Shown here in pieces: positions 1 through 28,467 of a DNA stretch of 29,539 nucleotides. The notes beneath the pieces were generated by a model. The model saw only the letters and a list, made by a program, of their open reading frames with translations. It was not told the origin of the DNA and ran no database searches. The DNA is from a virus. Taxonomy: Duplodnaviria; Heunggongvirae; Uroviricota; Caudoviricetes. How positions within the stretch are numbered: position 1 is the first letter of the stretch; the number at the start of each line of letters is the position of its first letter. The DNA is taken from positions 1 to 29,539 of IMG/VR virus record IMGVR_UViG_2554235125_000005. One strand, given 5' to 3'. The position numbers and the translations under genes are program-made.

Positions 1-1170
1 TCAATCCCTATCTTCCTCTGAACTGTACTCCACTTCCGAAAGCTGAACCTCAAGCTCTAGCCCCGTCGTGAAGCCATTATTATTCAGATTGTGAGTTACC
101 TTACTGATTAACCAAGATTGCTCGTCTATGACACGCTTAAAGCCTGATACGCGCACTGGCGTCTCGGGAAATAAATCAGCGCGACCGAGCGCCAGCGTAA
201 TTGAAAACTCGGCAACACCTCGTTGCAGCTTATCCCACTTAGCCTGAGCGGCGCGCATCGCCTGTGCCTTTGATGCGTAGACCGTCGTCAGCGCCAGCAC
301 GTTATCGGCTTCACCGGTCATGTACTCACCCTCGCGCGCTTCCTGCTCTTTTTTGGCCTTTGTCTTTTTGCTGACCGGCTTTGCTTTCGGGTGTTCCAGT
401 GCGCGCAGGTGTTTCTCTTTTGGCTGGCGTTTCAGCGTAACTTTCTGCTTTTGCGGCTTCGGGTCTTTAGTGTGCAACCATTTAGCGGTTACGCCGGTAT
501 AAGCCCCACGGTCAGCGATAGCAAACTGATGACGGTCACCGTCGCTACGGGTCAACGTCATTTGCGGAATTGGCTTACCGCTGACCGTCGTCGCGCTCCC
601 TGCTTTCATAAACAGCAGTTTCCCCGCTTTCACTGATACCGCAGCTCCGTTTCGGTCAGCCAGTCGGGTCAGAAATACCGAGTCGGACTCCTGCGACTGG
701 TCGATATGCGATACTGGGATTTTTTTTAGTGCATCCGCTACGCTGGCCGTCAGTTTGTTGCGTTTCGCAATGGTGCTGACCAGTTCGTCGAGGGTGGTGT
801 CATGCCATGATTCTTCACGCCTAGAATTGAGCGAACCGCGAAAGTCTGCACTGCGTGCCCGGATGGTCAGGGTATCAGGCGCGCCCCGGTGCTCAATCTC
901 ATCGACCGTGAAATCACCCTTATTCAGAAGTGCCGAACCCTGCCAGCCAAGCCACAACGTTAGCACCGCCCCGCGCAGGGGTAATTCGACTTTGCCGTCA
1001 GAGTCGTCGAGCTCAATGTCGAGTTGGTCAGCTTCAAAGCCCCGGTTGTCGGTCATGGTAAGAGAAATCAGCCGGTCACTAAAATTGCTGGTAATGTCCT
1101 GGCTGTTCAGCGTCAGCATAAATGCCGGTGCAAGACTGGCACCGGCGTCAATGGTCATGCCCGTAATCAT
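1..1170 (-). CDS. D: Tail protein D (late control gene D)
   Basis: 389-aa ORF at the distal end of the tail operon, the P2 gpD position and about the P2 gpD length as I recall it. Start ATG overlaps the upstream U stop (ATGA). Stop is at window positions 1-3. Confidence 0.8.
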   Translation of the reverse strand: MITGMTIDAGASLAPAFMLTLNSQDITSNFSDRLISLTMTDNRGFEADQLDIELDDSDGKVELPLRGAVLTLWLGWQGSALLNKGDFTVDEIEHRGAPDTLTIRARSADFRGSLNSRREESWHDTTLDELVSTIAKRNKLTASVADALKKIPVSHIDQSQESDSVFLTRLADRNGAAVSVKAGKLLFMKAGSATTVSGKPIPQMTLTRSDGDRHQFAIADRGAYTGVTAKWLHTKDPKPQKQKVTLKRQPKEKHLRALEHPKAKPVSKKTKAKKEQEAREGEYMTGEADNVLALTTVYASKAQAMRAAQAKWDKLQRGVAEFSITLALGRADLFPETPVRVSGFKRVIDEQSWLISKVTHNLNNNGFTTGLELEVQLSEVEYSSEEDRD

Positions 1171-20480: not shown

Positions 20481-21704
20481 TTAAACTTCGTCTTTACTAT
20501 TTATCATTCTGATATAACTAGGCATACGAGGATCTGAAATTTTATATACCCCTCTAGCTGCCTTTGTAAGGATCGCTCCTTTATCAGCCCTAGTAAAACG
20601 CCCAATATAGTTACTCATGTGATAGTTACTTAATGAAATTCCCGTATCTTCTCGAATTTGGGTAATCCATTCTTGAATGGTAAATTTATTATCTTTGAAT
20701 TTGGCTGCTGCATAAAGTATTGATGGATAAACATCAGTCCTGGATGAAGTAACTGCGTTCTCATAGTCTCTTTTAAGTTGTCCCTCGGTGTTTACTACTG
20801 CTCGCCTCAAAGCTTCAGGAAGAATGTCGGAATTTACTTCGCTTTTACCAGATGATAATACTATATCTGCAGATTCCTTTCCTATAAGATGCGTGAAATA
20901 TGGAAAACCATTGCTAATTTCAACTATAGAGTTTTTAACGTCACTACTAAATGTTATACCCAAGCCACGCTCGCCAGTCTCAATTATTTCATGTAAATAT
21001 TTATCTTCAATTCGAGAGAGTTGAATTTCATGGAGGCATCTGTTCACAGAAGGATGACCTGCTATCAACGAAGCACCGTCACTGGAAATGCCAACTAATA
21101 AAATCTTCAAAGGACTATTGGAATCGCTAAGTTGTTTAACAAACTCAGCGACATCATGCTTAACGTCATCACTGACAACATCAAATTCATCTATTAAAAG
21201 TATTGCATTCAATTCTTCAAGCGCAAAACAGGCTTTACTTGGAGTAAGATCTTCTTTTTCTATCGTGATTTTCTCTTCGGCAGAAACGTCCGCTCTAAAT
21301 AATTTCAAAACATTAAGGCCAACACCTGCTTTTTTAGTAGTCTCTCTTTTATTTGCGGCATATTCACTATCAATAAATATAGCTGGCCTTGCAATAATAT
21401 CTTTGAATTTTGTTTTTTTATCACATCGCACTACAAAAATATTACTAGGTAACACACCTTCATTTTTCCCTCCCTCTAAAGTAGATAAGGCGAGCGAGCT
21501 TTTCCCAATCCCTCTCTCTCCATAAATCATACAATGCTTGCCATCAGTAGTTAAGGTATCGAGGATATGTTCCACCTCGTTATTACGTCCTTTCAAATGG
21601 GTAGGTGCCTCAATAGGTTTAGAGGGTGTAAAATATAAATCAACATTTTTAATTTTATTTTTTTTTGCTTTAAATTTACTGAATATGCTGCTAGTAGTCG
21701 TCAT
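20481..21704 (-). CDS. P-loop NTPase of unknown function (AAA+/STAND-like with C-terminal winged-helix-like region), cargo gene
   Basis: 407-aa ORF with Walker A GERGIGKS and Walker B ILLIDEFD about 100 residues apart. No ABC signature. AGGA Shine-Dalgarno. Strongly AT-rich codon usage. Sits between portal gene and cos. Confidence 0.6.
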   Translation of the reverse strand: MTTTSSIFSKFKAKKNKIKNVDLYFTPSKPIEAPTHLKGRNNEVEHILDTLTTDGKHCMIYGERGIGKSSLALSTLEGGKNEGVLPSNIFVVRCDKKTKFKDIIARPAIFIDSEYAANKRETTKKAGVGLNVLKLFRADVSAEEKITIEKEDLTPSKACFALEELNAILLIDEFDVVSDDVKHDVAEFVKQLSDSNSPLKILLVGISSDGASLIAGHPSVNRCLHEIQLSRIEDKYLHEIIETGERGLGITFSSDVKNSIVEISNGFPYFTHLIGKESADIVLSSGKSEVNSDILPEALRRAVVNTEGQLKRDYENAVTSSRTDVYPSILYAAAKFKDNKFTIQEWITQIREDTGISLSNYHMSNYIGRFTRADKGAILTKAARGVYKISDPRMPSYIRMINSKDEV

Positions 21705-21821
21705 TTCCGCATCCTATTGCAAAAAGTTAACTTATTAAAAGAAAAATTCAGAGTAAGTGCAATACCTATTATTCGGAGCTTGTCACAAGATTCACTACTG
21801 AAGTGTAACCGCTGGCGCGCA

Positions 21822-21840
21822 ATGCTTTCCCCGCCACGCC
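21822..21840 (-). other. cos: cos-type cohesive-end site (19-mer)
   Basis: Plus strand ATGCTTTCCCCGCCACGCC is the reverse complement of GGCGTGGCGGGGAAAGCAT, which matches the P2/186 19-nt cohesive end as I recall it. Expected position for a prophage (between Q and the A side). Confidence 0.6.
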
Positions 21841-21999
21841 TGCCCGCTTTATGGGGCGGTTTTAATGCAGTTGCATGACTACTCTGGATCCGCTTCAGCT
21901 CTGGCGGCGCACGGCCAGAACGGGCAATCCCGGCGCATGCAAAACCATGCACCTGTTGCATGCACGACTAAAAAACGGGGTAATCGCGGAAAAATGGCA

Positions 22000-22555: not shown

Positions 22556-22786
22556 TTAACGCCAGCTATCGTCTTCCCAAATCTCTTGTAATATGCCGCC
22601 TAATGTTTCTTTGTCTGCCTCTTTATCGAATCCGATAACCTCTACACCAGTCATTGACCCTTTCTTGACGTTAACTTTTATTGTAGGAAAAACGCATTGT
22701 ACTCGATGTGTTATTTCATTCTGAAAAGCATCAATGATCTGTTGCCCTAATTTTTGTTCTTTATCCAACGTGATATTGATTCTCAT
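22556..22786 (-). CDS. dinI: DinI-like protein (possible C-terminal module of a Tum-type antirepressor)
   Basis: 76 aa, MRINITLDKEQ...GGILQEIWEDDSWR; resembles E. coli DinI in length and in the N-terminal MRI.. and C-terminal ILQE.WE..D.W pattern, from memory. Downstream of a LexA box. Confidence 0.7.
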   Translation of the reverse strand: MRINITLDKEQKLGQQIIDAFQNEITHRVQCVFPTIKVNVKKGSMTGVEVIGFDKEADKETLGGILQEIWEDDSWR

Positions 22787-22789
22787 AAT

Positions 22790-22972
22790 CTAATCAGCCT
22801 TATAAAAATTATCATCTTCGGTTTCGTTATTCTCGCTGTTTGCTAGGTCTGCAATGAGAGTGAGCGCGAGCTTTAAGTCTGATGGCTTGCAGTTTGCAAT
22901 CAGAGATACCTCGGCAATAAATTGCACACAAGCCCACTTTTGCTGCGTTCGGCTGAAATGTTCGTCAACCAT
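22790..22972 (-). CDS. Small SOS-induced protein (60 aa), possible N-terminal part of a split Tum-like antirepressor
   Basis: ATG preceded by AGGAGG and a consensus LexA box. Same frame as the DinI-like ORF, separated only by TAG plus one codon. Confidence 0.5.
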   Translation of the reverse strand: MVDEHFSRTQQKWACVQFIAEVSLIANCKPSDLKLALTLIADLANSENNETEDDNFYKAD

Positions 22973-22991: not shown

Positions 22992-23011
22992 TACTGTATG
23001 TTTATACAGTA
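22992..23011 (-). promoter_or_regulatory. LexA operator (SOS box) overlapping a candidate promoter -10
   Basis: TACTGTATGTTTATACAGTA fits CTGT-N8-ACAG with AT-rich spacer. On the minus strand TATAAA lies inside the box, about 25 nt upstream of AGGAGG and ATG. Confidence 0.75.
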
Positions 23012-23085
23012 GCACGTATTGGTAAAAGATGGGAAGAAAAAAAACGAATAGGGCGATTGTCGTATGTACATGATATGGATATAAA

Positions 23086-26249: not shown

Positions 26250-26759
26250 TCATACCAAACCAAATGTTGCGCCGATGCCGGTCATGGTATCAACCACGCT
26301 CGACATTGCCGGATTAGCCTGTAGACGCGCCTGTAACGCCAGCGCCGACAGAGACAACATGCGGATGCCTGCATTAACACTCTCAACCATGCTGTGTTTG
26401 CGGTCAGAGGTCATACGTTCATTTGATACCGCACCGCTCGCCAGTTCGCCGAGTTCACTCATTGCGCGCATCACATAAGACTGCAATTTCTCTTTAGCCA
26501 GCTCATTAACCGGCACGCATGGCAGACAATGTATCTGCGCCAGAAAGCCATCAACGAGGGTTGAGTCTTCGGTCAGGTCAGTCAGCAGCCACAATTCAGG
26601 CGGTGTGAATTGGTGAGGCTGTTCCGGGTTGAGCTTGTTACGTAACGTTTGAACATTCATACCCGCACGCTCGGCCAGCTTCGCCATGTTGTGACGCTGC
26701 GCAAAAGCCCGGCACGCTTCGTCATAGTGAGGATGTTTGGAAATCTGAAAATCAAACAT
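26250..26759 (-). CDS. cII: CII-type lysogeny establishment regulator (186 CII-like)
   Basis: Start refined to MFDFQISKHPHYDEACRAFAQRHNMAKLAERAGMNVQTLRNKL (169 aa) with GAGGGA Shine-Dalgarno. Resembles 186 CII in length and helix-turn-helix region, from memory. Confidence 0.75.
   Translation of the reverse strand: MFDFQISKHPHYDEACRAFAQRHNMAKLAERAGMNVQTLRNKLNPEQPHQFTPPELWLLTDLTEDSTLVDGFLAQIHCLPCVPVNELAKEKLQSYVMRAMSELGELASGAVSNERMTSDRKHSMVESVNAGIRMLSLSALALQARLQANPAMSSVVDTMTGIGATFGLV
26733..26759. promoter_or_regulatory. Candidate CII operator of an establishment promoter
   Basis: Perfect inverted heptamers ATGTTTG and CAAACAT with centres 20 bp apart, the geometry I recall for 186 CII half-sites. 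CATAAT lies about 25 bp to the right on the plus strand. Confidence 0.45.
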
Positions 26760-26791
26760 GGTTAAATTCCCTCTAACTTGCATAATCAAAT

Positions 26792-27163
26792 TCAGTTAAG
26801 AGCGATACGGTGGTCGATGTAGCGACAATCAATCGCTTGCTGGGTTAGTTTGTCGCGCCATGCTTTCACGTTTACGAGGGTGCGGCTTCGTTTTCCAGCC
26901 TCTTCCTTGTTGGAAAAGTCTTTAGTTGGAGCTTTGAGGAGGATTCCCTCATCAAGCCATTGCCAGACCAGACGCTCGCTTACACCGCGAGTGGCGGCAA
27001 AGTCTTTCACTGTCATTGTGTCTGACATAGCGGAGCGGATCATTGTCTGCAGAGCTGGCAGCATAGCGGTAACGATGGCATCAAACTGAGCCGGATCTAA
27101 CAGCACAGTTTGATTTTGTGAGTTTTGCGAATCATGCGTCGAGATTGATTTTGCATCTGACAT
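26792..27163 (-). CDS. Apl/Cox-like helix-turn-helix protein (excisionase / lytic-switch regulator candidate)
   Basis: 123-aa ORF, first gene of the early lytic operon, divergent from the repressor gene. AGGAGA Shine-Dalgarno. HTH-like VKDFAATRGVSERLVWQWLDEG. Longer than remembered Apl/Cox; the N-terminus is low-complexity. Confidence 0.5.
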   Translation of the reverse strand: MSDAKSISTHDSQNSQNQTVLLDPAQFDAIVTAMLPALQTMIRSAMSDTMTVKDFAATRGVSERLVWQWLDEGILLKAPTKDFSNKEEAGKRSRTLVNVKAWRDKLTQQAIDCRYIDHRIALN

Positions 27164-27240
27164 ATCGCATTATCTCCTGTTGATTGTAGTGAACTGCATT
27201 GATGTGCATCGTGGTTGATAATCATCACTTTAGTTCGCGA

Positions 27241-27270
27241 AATTTAATTTTGCAATGGCAAAAATTAATT
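27241..27270. promoter_or_regulatory. Candidate repressor operator overlapping a leftward early promoter
   Basis: Near-perfect AT-rich palindrome AATTTAATTTTGC-aatg-GCAAAAATTAATT just upstream of the repressor start. On the minus strand TTGCAA-17 nt-TAAAGT could be the early promoter. Confidence 0.35.
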
Positions 27271-27283
27271 TTGGTGGCAATAC

Positions 27284-28120
27284 ATGGCTAAATTTGGAGA
27301 TGGTGCGGCTCCGGCTATCGAAAGAATCCTTTCGGCTTATGGACTTAGCTCGCAAAAAGAACTTGGCGAAAAACTTGGTATTTATGCCAACAACATAAGC
27401 AGTTGGCTTGCCAGAGATAGCGTTCCGGGCAATGTATTTGTTGAATGTGCTATTGAAACGGGCGCAGATATCGGATGGTTAGTGACAGGGGAGCTTGCAA
27501 AAGCAAACTCTCCACGTGCGACCCTGAAGGGCAAAGAGCTTTATGAAAAGGTCATGGCTTCAGGTGGTAAACCTGTTCTGAGACGCATCCTTGATGCTTA
27601 CGGTTTTTCTATGCAAAAGGAGCTGGGTGATTTACTCGGTATATCATCTGGAACAATTAGCACATGGGTTCGGCGTGATTTTTTCCCAGGTGATGTAGTT
27701 GTTACTTGTGCTCTTGATACTGGTGTTTCGCTGGAATGGTTAGCAACCGGCAAGGGGCAAATGCGAACTAACAGAGAAATGGTCACATCAAGTTTTTCAA
27801 TTAAAAAATTTCGCCTTGAAGCGGGTGAGCTTAAGGACGCTGGCGAATGGCATCCAGACCCCTCGATGATACCCTCTGACTCAGAGGAGTTGATTTTTGT
27901 TGAAGGTGTTGGAGCCTCTTGGCTTGTCAACCGTTCTGCTTCGAACATAAGTAATGGGCGTTGGTTAATTGATATTGACGGCGCTCTTGATGTTTTTGAT
28001 GTAATTCGTCTTCCCGGCGGAAAAGTCAGGTTGTCAAATAAGTCTGCTGAGTTTGAATGCAGCATTACAGATATCACACCAGTAGGTGCTGTAATTTTCA
28101 CATTGGAAAAACACGTATAA
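27284..28120 (+). CDS. Immunity repressor, 186 CI-like, with tandemly duplicated N-terminal DNA-binding domain
   Basis: 278 aa. Two homologous about 60-aa segments (residues about 10-70 and 97-160, pattern I.RIL.AYG.S.QKELG..LGI....IS.W..RD..PG.V.V.CA..TG....WL.TG) followed by a C-terminal domain. No GDSM-type peptidase motif seen. Confidence 0.7.
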   Translation: MAKFGDGAAPAIERILSAYGLSSQKELGEKLGIYANNISSWLARDSVPGNVFVECAIETGADIGWLVTGELAKANSPRATLKGKELYEKVMASGGKPVLRRILDAYGFSMQKELGDLLGISSGTISTWVRRDFFPGDVVVTCALDTGVSLEWLATGKGQMRTNREMVTSSFSIKKFRLEAGELKDAGEWHPDPSMIPSDSEELIFVEGVGASWLVNRSASNISNGRWLIDIDGALDVFDVIRLPGGKVRLSNKSAEFECSITDITPVGAVIFTLEKHV

Positions 28121-28128
28121 GGGACATT

Positions 28129-28467
28129 ATGAAACGTAAGCTTTTTTTAGCTTTATTTCTTTCACTTTCTTTCGGTGCATCAGCCGCTGAAAAAACACAG
28201 GATTTAGACGGTGCTAAGTTTGGTGATGATTGGCCGTTAACTTTTGAAAAAGCTACGGTGTCTTGTGTTAATGGTAGATATGCCTTTGTGTACGACAAAG
28301 CAACAGATGACCGATACCCATTAAATGGGTTTGCTATTGATGGTGTAAAGTCTGGAAAGCTTGAGGGGAGCGATATTGATACTGTTTGGAAAGATAGCCC
28401 GGATTATGAAGGAGTAAAAATTCCTTTGGATCCCGTAATGGATGCTGCGACAGCACTTTGCGAATGA
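28129..28467 (+). CDS. Secreted/periplasmic protein of unknown function (lysogenic conversion candidate)
   Basis: Start refined to MKRKLFLALFLSLSFGASAAEK (112 aa): typical Sec signal peptide with AXA site, two Cys in the mature part, AAGGGA Shine-Dalgarno. Lies between repressor and integrase on the same strand. Confidence 0.55.
   Translation: MKRKLFLALFLSLSFGASAAEKTQDLDGAKFGDDWPLTFEKATVSCVNGRYAFVYDKATDDRYPLNGFAIDGVKSGKLEGSDIDTVWKDSPDYEGVKIPLDPVMDAATALCE

Follow-up and report, generated by a model that had tools for sequence, protein, structure and literature searches.

A two-headed CI repressor in a PSP3-type, 186-like prophage and a possible division of labor between its helix-turn-helix domains

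The open reading frame at 27284..28120 (+ strand) of the window, the whole 29,539-nt stretch of viral DNA analyzed here, encodes what is, judged by its sequence, the immunity repressor (CI) of a 186-like prophage of the PSP3 type (Eganvirus); its 278 residues hold two helix-turn-helix heads followed by a single C-terminal domain (CTD). The name immunity repressor follows from its divergence from an Apl/Cox-like gene and cII, its position upstream of int, and its 78% identity to PSP3 cI. On balance, a comparison with about 200 related prophage regions makes us lean toward a switch built like that of 186, with the work divided between the heads: the first (HTH1) would set immunity specificity and the second (HTH2) would read constant sites.

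The ORF opens with ATG, and a Shine–Dalgarno sequence (GGTGG) lies 8 nt 5′ of the start. As the original prediction had it, the protein carries tandem DNA-binding domains ahead of one CTD: Pfam matches PF07022 (Phage_CI_repr) twice, both full-length (E 3.4e-48), and PF16452 (Phage_CI_C) once, at residues 172–271 (E 8.7e-21). The two segments are homologous, and the estimate of about 40% identity was too low: residues 1–95 and 96–278 align by BLASTP without gaps at 33 of 61 positions (54%, E 2e-23), and the HMM-defined domains are 52% identical. The best PF07022 stretch is residues 98–161, covering the full profile length. By hmmsearch limits, the variable head HTH1 spans residues 9–71 (27308..27496, + strand; recognition helix YANNISSWLAR), and the near-invariant head HTH2 spans residues 96–158 (27569..27757, + strand; SSGTISTWVRR). 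Between them, linker 1 (residues 72–95; 27497..27568, + strand) is a disordered, hypervariable stretch followed by a conserved helix, LKGKxLYxxxMxxGGK, of which K82, G83, K84, G94 and G95 are invariant in aligned homologs. An AlphaFold2 model places five-helix bundles at 8–68 and 95–155, disorder at 73–79 (pLDDT <50), an additional helix at 83–93, and then a beta-rich CTD; with a monomer pTM of 0.41, the model does not give the mutual arrangement of the domains. The C-terminal oligomerization domain (27797..28117, + strand) superimposes on the 186 CTD structure 2fkd with a TM score of 0.88 and an rmsd of 1.7 Å (Foldseek).

The 186 CI structure 2fjr aligns to residues 97–271 only (E 1.8e-25), that is, to HTH2 and the CTD from end to end, and most representatives of the PF07022 and PF16452 family are ~190 aa and align to residues 93–275 only. 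By homology, then, the canonical 186-CI unit is HTH2 plus the CTD, and HTH1 is an additional N-terminal head. 186 CI has 192 aa and a single such domain, as the original prediction stated. The tandem heads may have arisen by internal duplication or by fusion of two paralogous heads.

The two heads have evolved very differently. Mean column entropy is 0.19 bits for HTH2, 0.88 for HTH1 and 0.78 for the CTD, and pairs that are <80% identical overall retain amino acid identities of 0.84, 0.57 and 0.48 in HTH2, HTH1 and the CTD, respectively. In the same pairs, the same-codon fractions are about equal (~0.3). Because amino acid identity in HTH2 is high while synonymous sites are saturated, its near-invariance is, on this codon evidence, due to purifying selection; contacts with the antirepressor TumA or within a dimer, rather than with DNA, could be what is selected. 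HTH1 classes are told apart chiefly by the four residues that open the recognition helix (YANN in the window, HANN, AKHS, PSNS, PANN, APNN and others); its C-terminal half, (I/V)S(S/G/T)W..R, is common to all of them. Variation in HTH1 gathers where the recognition helix determines specificity, and fold residues are kept.

This variable helix is accompanied by variable operator DNA. The lytic promoter pR is deduced at 27227..27255 (− strand), with a −35 of TTGCAA (27255–27250), a 17-nt spacer and a −10 of TAAAGT (27232–27227), in a layout that matches the annotated 186 pR. A generic sigma-70 scan of 26700–27500 found no promoter, since pR scores only 8/12; we deduced it from a frame (TTTACA-17-TAAAGT, TATAGT or TATATT) kept in nearly all of 49 related loci. 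A repeat search yielded the candidate class-specific operators GCGAAATTTAATTTTG and GCAAAAATTAATTTTG, 21 bp apart within 27237..27273, which are identical in a second locus of the same HTH1 class (L005); related TTTTG-N6-7-CAAAA palindromes lie over the −35 in the HANN class. The repeated elements found within the pR spacer and upstream of it are particular to each class and kept across genera, and among the 49 loci the recognition-helix classes co-vary with pR operator sequence, a pattern that co-inheritance alone could give because HTH1 and the operators are physically linked. A mosaic profile against PSP3, Midge and SW9 places a variable block at 27240–27570 with conserved sequence on either side, which suggests that HTH1 and ~50 bp of pR operator DNA form an exchangeable immunity module of ~335 bp (~27235–27570).

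A second class of putative site, the palindrome TTGC-N4-GCAA, stays constant. In the window, the refined motif (≤1 mismatch) occurs at three places only, all within the 730-bp switch. TTGCAATGGCAA (27250..27261) overlaps the pR −35; TTGCAAAAGCAA (27495..27506) is intragenic, falls on codons L71, A72, K73, A74 and N75 at the HTH1–HTH2 linker, and resembles the 186 FL site in placement; and TTGCATAATCAA (26778..26789), with one mismatch, lies at the apl/cII junction, in the position corresponding to 186 FR. The FL-like site recurs with ≤1 mismatch at +211..+229 in 46 of 49 loci, in all HTH1 classes. Its codons are strongly constrained (CTT in 23/24, GCA in 39/40 and GCA in 27/32): of the 133 degenerate columns, they have the 2nd, 1st and 4th lowest codon entropies, respectively, and the motif is retained even where the encoded residues differ. 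Kosakonia loci carry a perfect TTGCAAAAGCAA at the apl/cII junction, the FR-like place; in the window, the imperfect FR-like site shares bases with a possible pE −10 (CATAAT), and part of its conservation may stem from that promoter.

Over 287 kb, the palindrome has 123 matches; relative to the cI ATG, 38 of them lie at +200..250, 18 at −50..0 and 13 at −550..−450. Taken by itself, the window shows no significant excess of degenerate forms (6 versus 4.6 expected; 5 versus 2.2 expected); the case for the palindrome is made by position, cross-locus conservation and codon constraint. ACTTGCA, a 7-mer from the operator of single-head repressors, is likewise not enriched in the window (2 versus 4.9 expected); the palindrome form alone was informative. 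Two further candidates were set aside: the TTGATTTTG repeats at 27110 and 27145, considered as CI flanking sites, are explained by sequence coding for the Apl N terminus, and a similar sequence at the cII start by the coding of CII residues MFDFQ together with the CII site. In PSP3, Midge and SW9, representing three different HTH1 classes, the palindrome also overlaps the −35 of the late-activator (pag) promoter, which in PSP3 reads AACTTGCAAATGCAAAC and lies outside the window. In 186, FL, FR and pB share one palindrome, ATTCAC-N5-GTGAAT, from which the pR operators differ, and the places of the constant palindrome suggest that it marks putative operators mirroring these three sites. The PSP3, SW9 and Midge classes lack a full constant-type palindrome at pR; the window class, PANN and APNN have one there as well, and in a simple model this would let heterologous CI bind, blurring heteroimmunity.

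The site at pR is also where a different geometry finds its evidence. Operators might be composite, with both heads of each subunit on adjacent sub-sites, four heads per dimer and ~36 bp in all, so that the constant palindromes would be the HTH2 part of composite sites or weak auxiliary sites. GCGAAATTTAATTTTG and GCAAAAATTAATTTTG alternatively form a ~36-bp imperfect palindrome centered at 27255/6, with A/T-rich arms around TTGCAATGGCAA; palindromes of 30–36 bp with inner and outer sub-sites lie over pR in four other loci (L009, L018, L024 and L043); a near-universal (G/A)ATCG(C), with a TCGC half-site, abuts class-specific sequence by the pR −10; and a flexible linker of ~25 residues in the AlphaFold2 model would permit such binding. 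We nevertheless consider composite operators unlikely, as the FL-like, FR-like and pag sites are isolated palindromes of 12–16 bp, identical between classes and without recognizable class-specific flanks, and as three classes do without the full palindrome at pR.

Whether HTH2 reads DNA at all is informed by a separate group of repressors. At 32 loci (L050, L136–L166), on ~15-kb elements that bear a P2 A gene and differ in genomic context from the window phage, CI has a single head of the HTH2 type. These proteins are 77–99% identical to P0133, a CI of this type; their head is 84% identical to the window HTH2 and has the same recognition helix, SSGTISTWVRR. They lack HTH1, and a palindrome of the window's type, CTTGCATTTGCAAG, fills the pR spacer as the sole evident operator, in the form CTTGCATTTGC(A/G)AG (22 of 32 exact, the others with one mismatch). 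An HTH2-type head standing alone beside a promoter spacer filled by the palindrome argues that heads of this type do read DNA. It also weighs against the idea that HTH2 serves chiefly in protein interactions (as a contact in the dimer or wheel, as a spacer, or as a docking site for TumA) and that HTH1 does all sequence-specific reading, with the constant palindrome read by conserved HTH1 residues of dual specificity or by another conserved protein. HTH2 is conserved beyond the need of a DNA-binding head, TumA is equally constant across classes, and the C-terminal half of the HTH1 helix is shared by all of them; moreover, one 186 head reads two distinct recognition sequences, according to PMC3675496 and its reference 5. 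HTH2 nonetheless keeps the full Pfam helix-turn-helix profile, including the W..RR recognition helix, and we regard such a mainly protein-binding role as improbable. Covariation between HTH2 and the motif (STAT versus SSGT helices; TCGCATTTGCAA versus TTGCAAAWGCAA) offered nothing usable, since HTH2 varies too little and the TCGCATTTGCAA/TTGCAAAWGCAA variant follows the linker sequence class, not HTH2.

The converse, that HTH1 does not bind DNA and is a regulatory or decoy appendage (auto-inhibitory, anti-antirepressor or a superinfection sensor) to a switch run by HTH2 alone, is more doubtful still. HTH2 and the CTD would by themselves make a complete 186-type CI, and a metagenomic relative (L052) is a natural split form, with HTH1 on a 69-aa ORF of its own. 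An invariant HTH2 as sole reader would, however, make all these phages homoimmune, yet operator DNA at pR differs between classes in step with the HTH1 recognition helix, in which variation centers on specificity positions while fold residues are conserved. Finally, the notion that a small helix-turn-helix gene and a normal CI gene were joined by sequencing error, for which the separate ORFs of L052 might be quoted, is refuted by the comparative data, the fused ORF being intact and co-linear in 49 genome or phage loci and 80 viral contigs from many genera and present in the isolated phages PSP3, SEN1, SW9, SI22 and Midge. No frameshift is involved, as >125 intact full-length homologs of 276–294 aa show, and the CI has the layout of the PSP3-type subgroup of that length range: HTH1, LKGKxLY helix, invariant HTH2 (SSGTISTWVRR) and CTD.

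The two-headed CI is common in Enterobacterales prophages and is neither rare nor peculiar to the window phage. To our knowledge, none of the CIs of the PSP3 group has been characterized. Literature searches on PF07022, the PSP3 repressor and two helix-turn-helix domains found no published description of a doubled CI head; a comparative paper (PMC3448106) put the extra CI length down to a "longer C-terminal domain", a reading of the PSP3 CI that the two-headed architecture corrects. An independent tandem-HTH lineage is represented by P0136 (L054), in which no operators for a parallel two-site pattern could be defined by eye.

The surroundings of cI are those of a 186-type switch with SOS control. 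Divergent from cI is a 123-aa Apl/Cox-like gene (26792..27163, − strand; phrog_3554, with a weak Cox-like match to phrog_575), equivalent to PSP3 gp30 and without a Pfam match, followed by cII (26250..26759, − strand; Phage_CP76, Pfam E 8.7e-48). A CII-binding-type inverted repeat, GTTTG-N13-CAAAC (26735..26757), nearly identical to the annotated 186 CII site, overlaps the cII start (ATG 26759, − strand), and the FR-like site lies just downstream of it. Farther away, a perfect LexA box, TACTGTATAAACATACAGTAA (22992..23012, − strand), in a p95-like SOS promoter precedes tumA (22790..22972, − strand), which encodes a 60-aa candidate antirepressor 96.7% identical to PSP3 TumA, and the DinI-like tumB (22556..22786, − strand; Pfam DinI), parted from tumA by an in-frame TAG. 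The tumB protein is 66% identical to residues 71–146 of 186 Tum. Between TumA and the N terminus of 186 Tum no similarity was detected, and the note "similar to 5′ end of 186 tum" in the PSP3 record reflects position, not sequence. Irrespective of HTH1 class, tumA is found in 63 of 66 related loci, and a CTGT-N8-ACAG box lies ≤80 nt upstream of it in 63 of 65. The upstream tum gene of PSP3 (TumA) has been reported to carry antirepressor activity (PMC3121763). CI itself has no Peptidase_S24 match (Pfam, E ≤1), and its CTD has no invariant serine across 26 homologs, S212 being A or G in Kosakonia forms. Both the missing Ser-Lys autopeptidase motif and the Tum-like, SOS-driven induction that had been proposed thus hold up, and the evidence supports induction by a LexA-controlled predicted antirepressor rather than by RecA-stimulated cleavage.

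Assigning heads to sites from their co-conservation, and assuming heteroimmunity between HTH1 classes, the switch that we favor would work as follows. HTH1 would read class-specific operators over pR and so set immunity specificity. HTH2 would read the constant palindrome T(T/C)GC-N4-GC(A/G)A at 27495–27506 (as 186 FL), at 26778–26789 (as 186 FR/pE), at the pag promoter outside the window (as 186 pB) and at 27250–27261 over the pR −35. Repression would be 186-like: pR would be occluded, the CTD oligomer would loop or wrap DNA to the flanking sites, and the late activator would be shut off. The inducer would be the LexA-controlled TumA antirepressor, whose predicted target lies in the constant portion of CI, whether in HTH2, the linker helix or the CTD, since a TumA that is the same in all immunity classes must act on what those classes share.

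Genomes of Klebsiella, Enterobacter, Salmonella, Serratia and E. coli very commonly harbor P2/186-like prophages. The 186 switch serves as the chief alternative model to lambda for how a bistable decision arises from DNA looping, promoter interference and an oligomeric repressor. The two-headed CI bears on two questions about it: how one helix-turn-helix reads two unrelated operator types, and how specificity can change while the wheel and flanking-site architecture is spared. A widespread natural relative that apparently puts two reading jobs on two heads makes both directly testable. It is possible, at rather less than even confidence, that the second head resolves the dual specificity of the 186 head, with HTH1 a swappable cassette and HTH2 frozen by shared sites and TumA. 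Cross-talk would follow: by way of HTH2, a resident prophage could silence the late activator of a heteroimmune superinfector, and a single TumA could trigger every co-resident relative together, predicting cross-regulation among heteroimmune P2/186-like prophages through shared late-gene repression and shared SOS induction.

The closest known systems are those of PSP3 (CI NP_958086), SEN1, SW9, SI22, Midge, vB_EcoM-613R3 and RCIP0057, whose CIs are likewise two-headed and 64–78% identical to that of the window. HTH2, the CTD, TumA, the Apl-like gene, DUF2511 and the FL-like site are common to this group and the window phage, whereas the HTH1 recognition helix and pR operator DNA are unlike (YANN in the window, AKHS in PSP3, PSNS in Midge, HANN in SW9). 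The palindrome of the pag promoter, which lies beyond the window, is likewise common to the group. Phage 186 shares the Pfam domains, the gene order (int-cI / apl-cII), the pR frame adjoining the cI start and SOS/Tum-type induction in place of self-cleavage; its CTD, which builds a 14-mer wheel (a heptamer of dimers), is 33% identical to that of the window CI. In both systems a palindrome of one type lies at the intragenic FL or FL-like place, the apl/cII junction and the late-activator promoter. The different operator geometry originally expected stands in part, insofar as class-specific and constant sites appear to form separate sets, while the overall plan is 186-like. The window CI differs from 186 CI in its extra head and conserved linker helix, 86 more residues in all, and its two site classes are apparently matched to two heads, whereas one 186 head reads both. 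The FL-like site falls in the HTH1–HTH2 linker codons rather than in the NTD–CTD linker as in 186, the Apl-like protein is a 123-aa form not in Pfam, and Tum is split into TumA and a DinI-like TumB. Repressors of the lambda CI and LexA type resemble the window CI in joining one or more helix-turn-helix heads to a beta-rich C-terminal oligomerization domain and in cooperative long-range repression, and the window CTD fold is distantly LexA-like (Foldseek E ~1e-4 to 1e-6). Those repressors cleave themselves through an S24 peptidase domain, whereas the window CI, with neither an S24 match nor a conserved CTD serine, is predicted to yield to an antirepressor.

The repressor gene cI is intact in the window (27284-28120, + strand), with an ATG start, a GGTGG ribosome-binding site upstream and a 278-aa product. 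Pfam matches PF07022 (Phage_CI_repr) in two stretches of CI (E 3.4e-48) and PF16452 (Phage_CI_C) at residues 172-271 (E 8.7e-21). Residues 1-95 align without gaps to residues 97-158, with 33/61 identical positions (E 2e-23), and the variable head HTH1 and the near-invariant head HTH2 are 52% identical over their HMM-defined domains; the original prediction of about 40% was too low. An AlphaFold2 model built from a 26-sequence alignment (pLDDT 77.7) contains two five-helix bundles (residues 8-68 and 95-155), joined by residues 73-79, which are disordered, and an additional helix at 83-93. Another disordered linker (161-169) leads to a beta domain that superposes on the C-terminal domain (CTD) of 186 CI (2fkd; TM 0.88, rmsd 1.7 Å), while the low pTM of 0.41 means that the model does not fix the relative placement of the domains. 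The 186 repressor is 192 aa long with a single head in its record, and its structure (2fjr) aligns only to residues 97-271 of CI. The tandem heads, and their contrast with the one such domain of 186 CI, are thus confirmed.

The window covers nearly all of a P2/186-like prophage, with tail gene D at its left end and the integrase gene at its right end. Its closest phages are the Eganviruses PSP3 (CI 78% identical), SEN1, Midge, SW9/SI22, vB_EcoM-613R3 and RCIP0057, all with identical gene order and a ~280-aa cI product. Just ten of the 158 phage records matching the CI family have this long form, all of them among these closest phages. It is abundant in bacteria, where the lengths of the best 120 of 836 database matches all fall within 267-287 aa and a single cluster represents 737 contigs. 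Sampling a single genome from each species yielded 45 loci, from Enterobacter, Citrobacter, Escherichia, Kosakonia, Serratia, Pectobacterium, Erwinia, Brenneria, Buttiauxella, Acerihabitans and others, and IMG/VR holds 366 relatives. Among the clusters of a 50%-identity library, about nine contain full-length two-headed forms; most of the family is ~190 aa and aligns to residues 93-275 only, so that HTH2 and the CTD form the canonical 186-type unit and HTH1 is an addition.

Divergent from cI lies an Apl/Cox-like gene (26792-27163, - strand), whose 123-aa product matches phrog_3554 and, weakly, the Cox-like phrog_575, with no Pfam match and a long N-terminal tail rich in Ser/Gln. The sequence AG(A/T)TTGATTTTG occurs twice in its coding DNA (27107-27118 and 27142-27153, 35 bp apart), in the region corresponding to where 186 has pL, and could represent promoter or Apl-site elements. 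The cII gene (Phage_CP76 in Pfam) is near cI. Between cI and int, a YebY-like, signal-peptide-bearing DUF2511 gene (28129-28467, + strand), kept in PSP3, Midge and SW9, is presumably a moron co-transcribed with cI in the lysogen. The stretch 20481-21961 (- strand), flanked by the portal gene and the SOS operon, holds a gene for a 407-aa STAND/AAA NTPase (nSTAND1; phrog_6841; weak match to PADLOC PDC-S59, E 1.8e-7) and an overlapping 86-aa ORF, and is likely an accessory or anti-phage cargo locus.

In an alignment of 120 homologues, column entropy averages 0.88 bits in HTH1, 0.19 in HTH2 and 0.78 in the CTD. For locus pairs less than 80% identical overall, amino acid identity is 0.57, 0.84 and 0.48, respectively, and where a degenerate residue is shared, its codon is also the same in a fraction of ~0.3 in all domains. 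Purifying selection on the protein, and not a recent exchange of DNA, therefore maintains HTH2, whose recognition helix (SSGTISTWVRR) hardly varies at all. HTH1 sequences form discrete classes, distinguished mostly by recognition-helix residues 1-4: YANN in the window, HANN in SW9, AKHS in PSP3, PSNS in Midge, PANN in Kosakonia and APNN in Serratia, among others.

We anchored 49 loci on a promoter frame conserved on the strand opposite cI (-35 TTTACA, 17-nt spacer, -10 TAAAGT, TATAGT or TATATT), whose layout is that of the annotated 186 pR adjoining the cI start. In the window, the deduced pR (- strand) has the -35 TTGCAA at 27255-27250, a 17-nt spacer and its -10 at 27232-27227. The classes share the sequence left of the -10. 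The spacer and the 25-30 bp that lead to the cI ATG are class-specific, and each HTH1 class retains them even in different genera. The PANN/APNN loci carry TCGCA-N2-3-TGCGA in the spacer, YANN/HANN loci carry TTTTG-N6-7-CAAAA over the -35, PSNS loci have AATCGAAAATGAG and AATCGATTTTGAG 23 bp apart, and AKHS has its own pattern. Candidate class-specific operators of the window are GCGAAATTTAATTTTG (27237-27252) and GCAAAAATTAATTTTG (27258-27273), 21 bp apart and together readable as a ~36-bp imperfect palindrome. In a sliding comparison with PSP3, Midge and SW9, identity is above ~75% left of 27230, 7-67% at 27240-27570 and above 80% from 27600, which delimits an exchangeable block of ~335 bp comprising the pR operators, HTH1 and the hypervariable linker.

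The palindromic 12-mer TTGC-N4-GCAA occurs twice in the window, over the pR -35 (27250-27261) and inside cI (27495-27506). Its degenerate form, T(T/C)GC-N4-GC(A/G)A, has 123 occurrences in the 49 loci (287 kb), of which 38 lie at +200 to +250 from the cI ATG, 18 at -50 to 0 and 13 at -550 to -450. With at most one mismatch, the intragenic palindrome is present in 46/49 loci and in every HTH1 class, where it falls within codons of the disordered HTH1-HTH2 linker (L-A-K/N-A-N). Leu is encoded by CTT in 23/24 cases, the first Ala by GCA in 39/40 and the second by GCA in 27/32; their codon entropies (0.25, 0.17 and 0.63 bits; the 133 degenerate columns average 1.65) place them second, first and fourth from the bottom within cI. 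A neighbouring Leu uses CTG, TTA and TTG freely, and classes with the linker N-S-H-L-Q retain the palindrome a few bases downstream as TCGCATTTGCAA. These frozen codons, and a motif kept where the residues differ, reflect selection on the DNA rather than the protein.

At the apl/cII junction, the palindrome is perfect in Kosakonia loci (TTGCAAAAGCAA). The window has an FR-like site there with one mismatch (TTGCATAATCAA, 26778-26789), which overlaps a possible -10 and directly follows the inverted repeat GTTTG-N13-CAAAC, almost identical to the annotated 186 CII site. In PSP3, Midge and SW9, the promoter of pag (-35 TTGCAA, 16 nt, TATTAT), an Ogr/B late-activator homologue located beyond the window, has the palindrome overlapping its -35 as AACTTGCAAATGCAAAC. 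Allowing one mismatch, the refined motif TTGCAWWWGCAA is found at just three places in the window (26778-26789, 27250-27261 and 27495-27506), all within 730 bp of 29.5 kb. The first spacer bases beside the pR -10 (27233-27238) read (G/A)(A/T)TCG(C/A/T) in nearly every one of loci L001-L049, across all classes (GTTCGC in the window, often GATCGC elsewhere), and contain the palindrome half-site TCGC and often a Dam GATC; to our knowledge this is not among known promoter elements.

A 196-aa single-head CI (P0133) has a head 84% identical to HTH2 of the window, with the same recognition helix. Proteins 77-99% identical are encoded by L050 and 31 further viral contigs, and in these 32 loci A(A/G)CTTGCATTTGC(A/G)AGT occupies the 17-nt spacer of the divergently oriented promoter (TTGACA-17-TAGATT), exactly in 22/32 and with one mismatch in the remainder. 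Since this palindrome fills the spacer beside a single-head CI, the HTH2-type head is predicted to be a working operator reader with the constant palindrome as its site. The single-head genes lie at the end of ~15-kb contigs (L050, L136-L166) with a P2 A-type replication gene and without cII or apl; such contigs may represent degenerate members of the P2 family or small satellite-like elements.

The 60-aa ORF tumA (22972-22790, - strand) has a perfect LexA box, TACTGTATAAACATACAGTAA, upstream (23012-22992, - strand). Downstream lies the DinI-like tumB (22786-22556, - strand), 66% identical to 186 Tum residues 71-146. Both are in the same frame, separated by TAG and one codon (22790-22792), and the PSP3 record names the equivalent genes tumA and tumB. 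In 186, by contrast, Tum is a fusion, and no similarity of TumA to its N-terminus is detectable. The split has reportedly been seen in PSP3 and Fels-2. According to one paper, a stop codon splits the PSP3 tum region and the upstream gene carries the antirepressor activity (PMC3121763, with reference to Bunny et al. 2002 and G. E. Christie, personal communication). TumA is found in exactly the ten phage records with two-headed CI, at 96.7-98.3% identity regardless of HTH1 class, and in 63/66 related viral loci with enough flank; the LexA box lies within 80 nt of tumA in 63/65 such loci. Alleles of tumB are 46-96% identical or absent in relatives, with tumA retained. Two IMG/VR contigs encode a CI 100% identical to that of the window, and tumA is present in one (L117) and not detected within 10 kb upstream in the other (L056), so early-region cargo varies between identical immunity types. 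Antirepressor-driven induction without an autopeptidase, as originally proposed, is supported by the LexA box and tumA, by the lack of a Peptidase_S24 match to CI in Pfam, and by homologue alignments in which the CTD has no invariant Ser. Because one TumA serves several immunity classes, its target is probably a constant part of CI.

Head doubling is recurrent, since tandem heads occur in at least two other CI-family branches, P0136/P0156 (L054) and P0184/P0196/P0200; in the latter three, each head is most closely related to the other head of its own protein. Two (or three) independently acquired tandem Phage_CI_repr heads are seen in these proteins and in P0226. HTH1 shares 41-52% identity with HTH2 and 44-54% with its best-matching single-head relatives, and the PSP3-type doubling could have arisen either by internal duplication or by joining two paralogous heads. 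In the metagenomic locus L052 (2213-3070), the repressor is split into a 69-aa HTH1-only ORF, with a stop directly past the WVVTG motif, a 79-nt gap containing a degenerate intragenic palindrome and a 189-aa HTH2-CTD ORF, followed by a SIR2_2 gene in place of DUF2511/int; the repressor has either decayed here or exists naturally as two genes.

We narrowly favor a model, drawn from these sequence patterns, in which the two-headed repressor runs a 186-like switch with a division of labor between its heads. HTH1 and its own operators would form a swappable immunity cassette, HTH2 would read the constant flanking and late-promoter sites, TumA would target HTH2, the linker helix or the CTD, and the CTD would provide oligomerisation and looping. 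We infer the head-to-site assignment, oligomeric state, looping and TumA target from the observed architecture, conservation pattern, motif positions, codon constraint, SOS operon and single-head comparison. Heteroimmunity between HTH1 classes is assumed, and a clean version of it is complicated by the constant-type palindrome at pR in some classes, including the window. HTH2 does not vary, so covariation with the palindrome carries no signal. One rival reading has composite operators bound by four heads. HTH2 might alternatively be a pure protein-contact module, although the single-head loci point to an operator reader. HTH1 as an appendage without DNA binding is a further rival, set against class-specific pR operators whose co-variation with the physically linked HTH1 may be co-inheritance.

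The two-headed CI belongs to a group known from sequence, with PSP3 cI deposited two decades ago and both Pfam domains visible in any domain scan, and in that sense is not new data. Our literature searches found no description or interpretation of the doubled head. The one comparative study that noted the extra CI length ascribes it to a longer C-terminal domain (PMC3448106), and an Eganvirus phylogeny paper does not discuss the doubled head. As far as these searches reach, the intragenic palindrome, head-specific conservation and division-of-labor model are new and testable.

In phage 186, the operators FL (in the cI linker codons), FR (at the apl/cII junction, over pE) and pB share ATTCAC-N5-GTGAAT, whereas the three pR operators differ, with ATCTCCCAATTGAGAGAT at the center. 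The 186 literature describes a single HTH that reads two distinct recognition sequences, with CI acting as a 14-mer wheel around which pR-pL is wrapped and from which loops reach FL or FR (PMC3675496 and its ref 5). The PSP3-type phages have the same site map as 186, but their sites comprise a constant type, shared by all classes, and a class-specific type, and the two heads of the repressor differ likewise.
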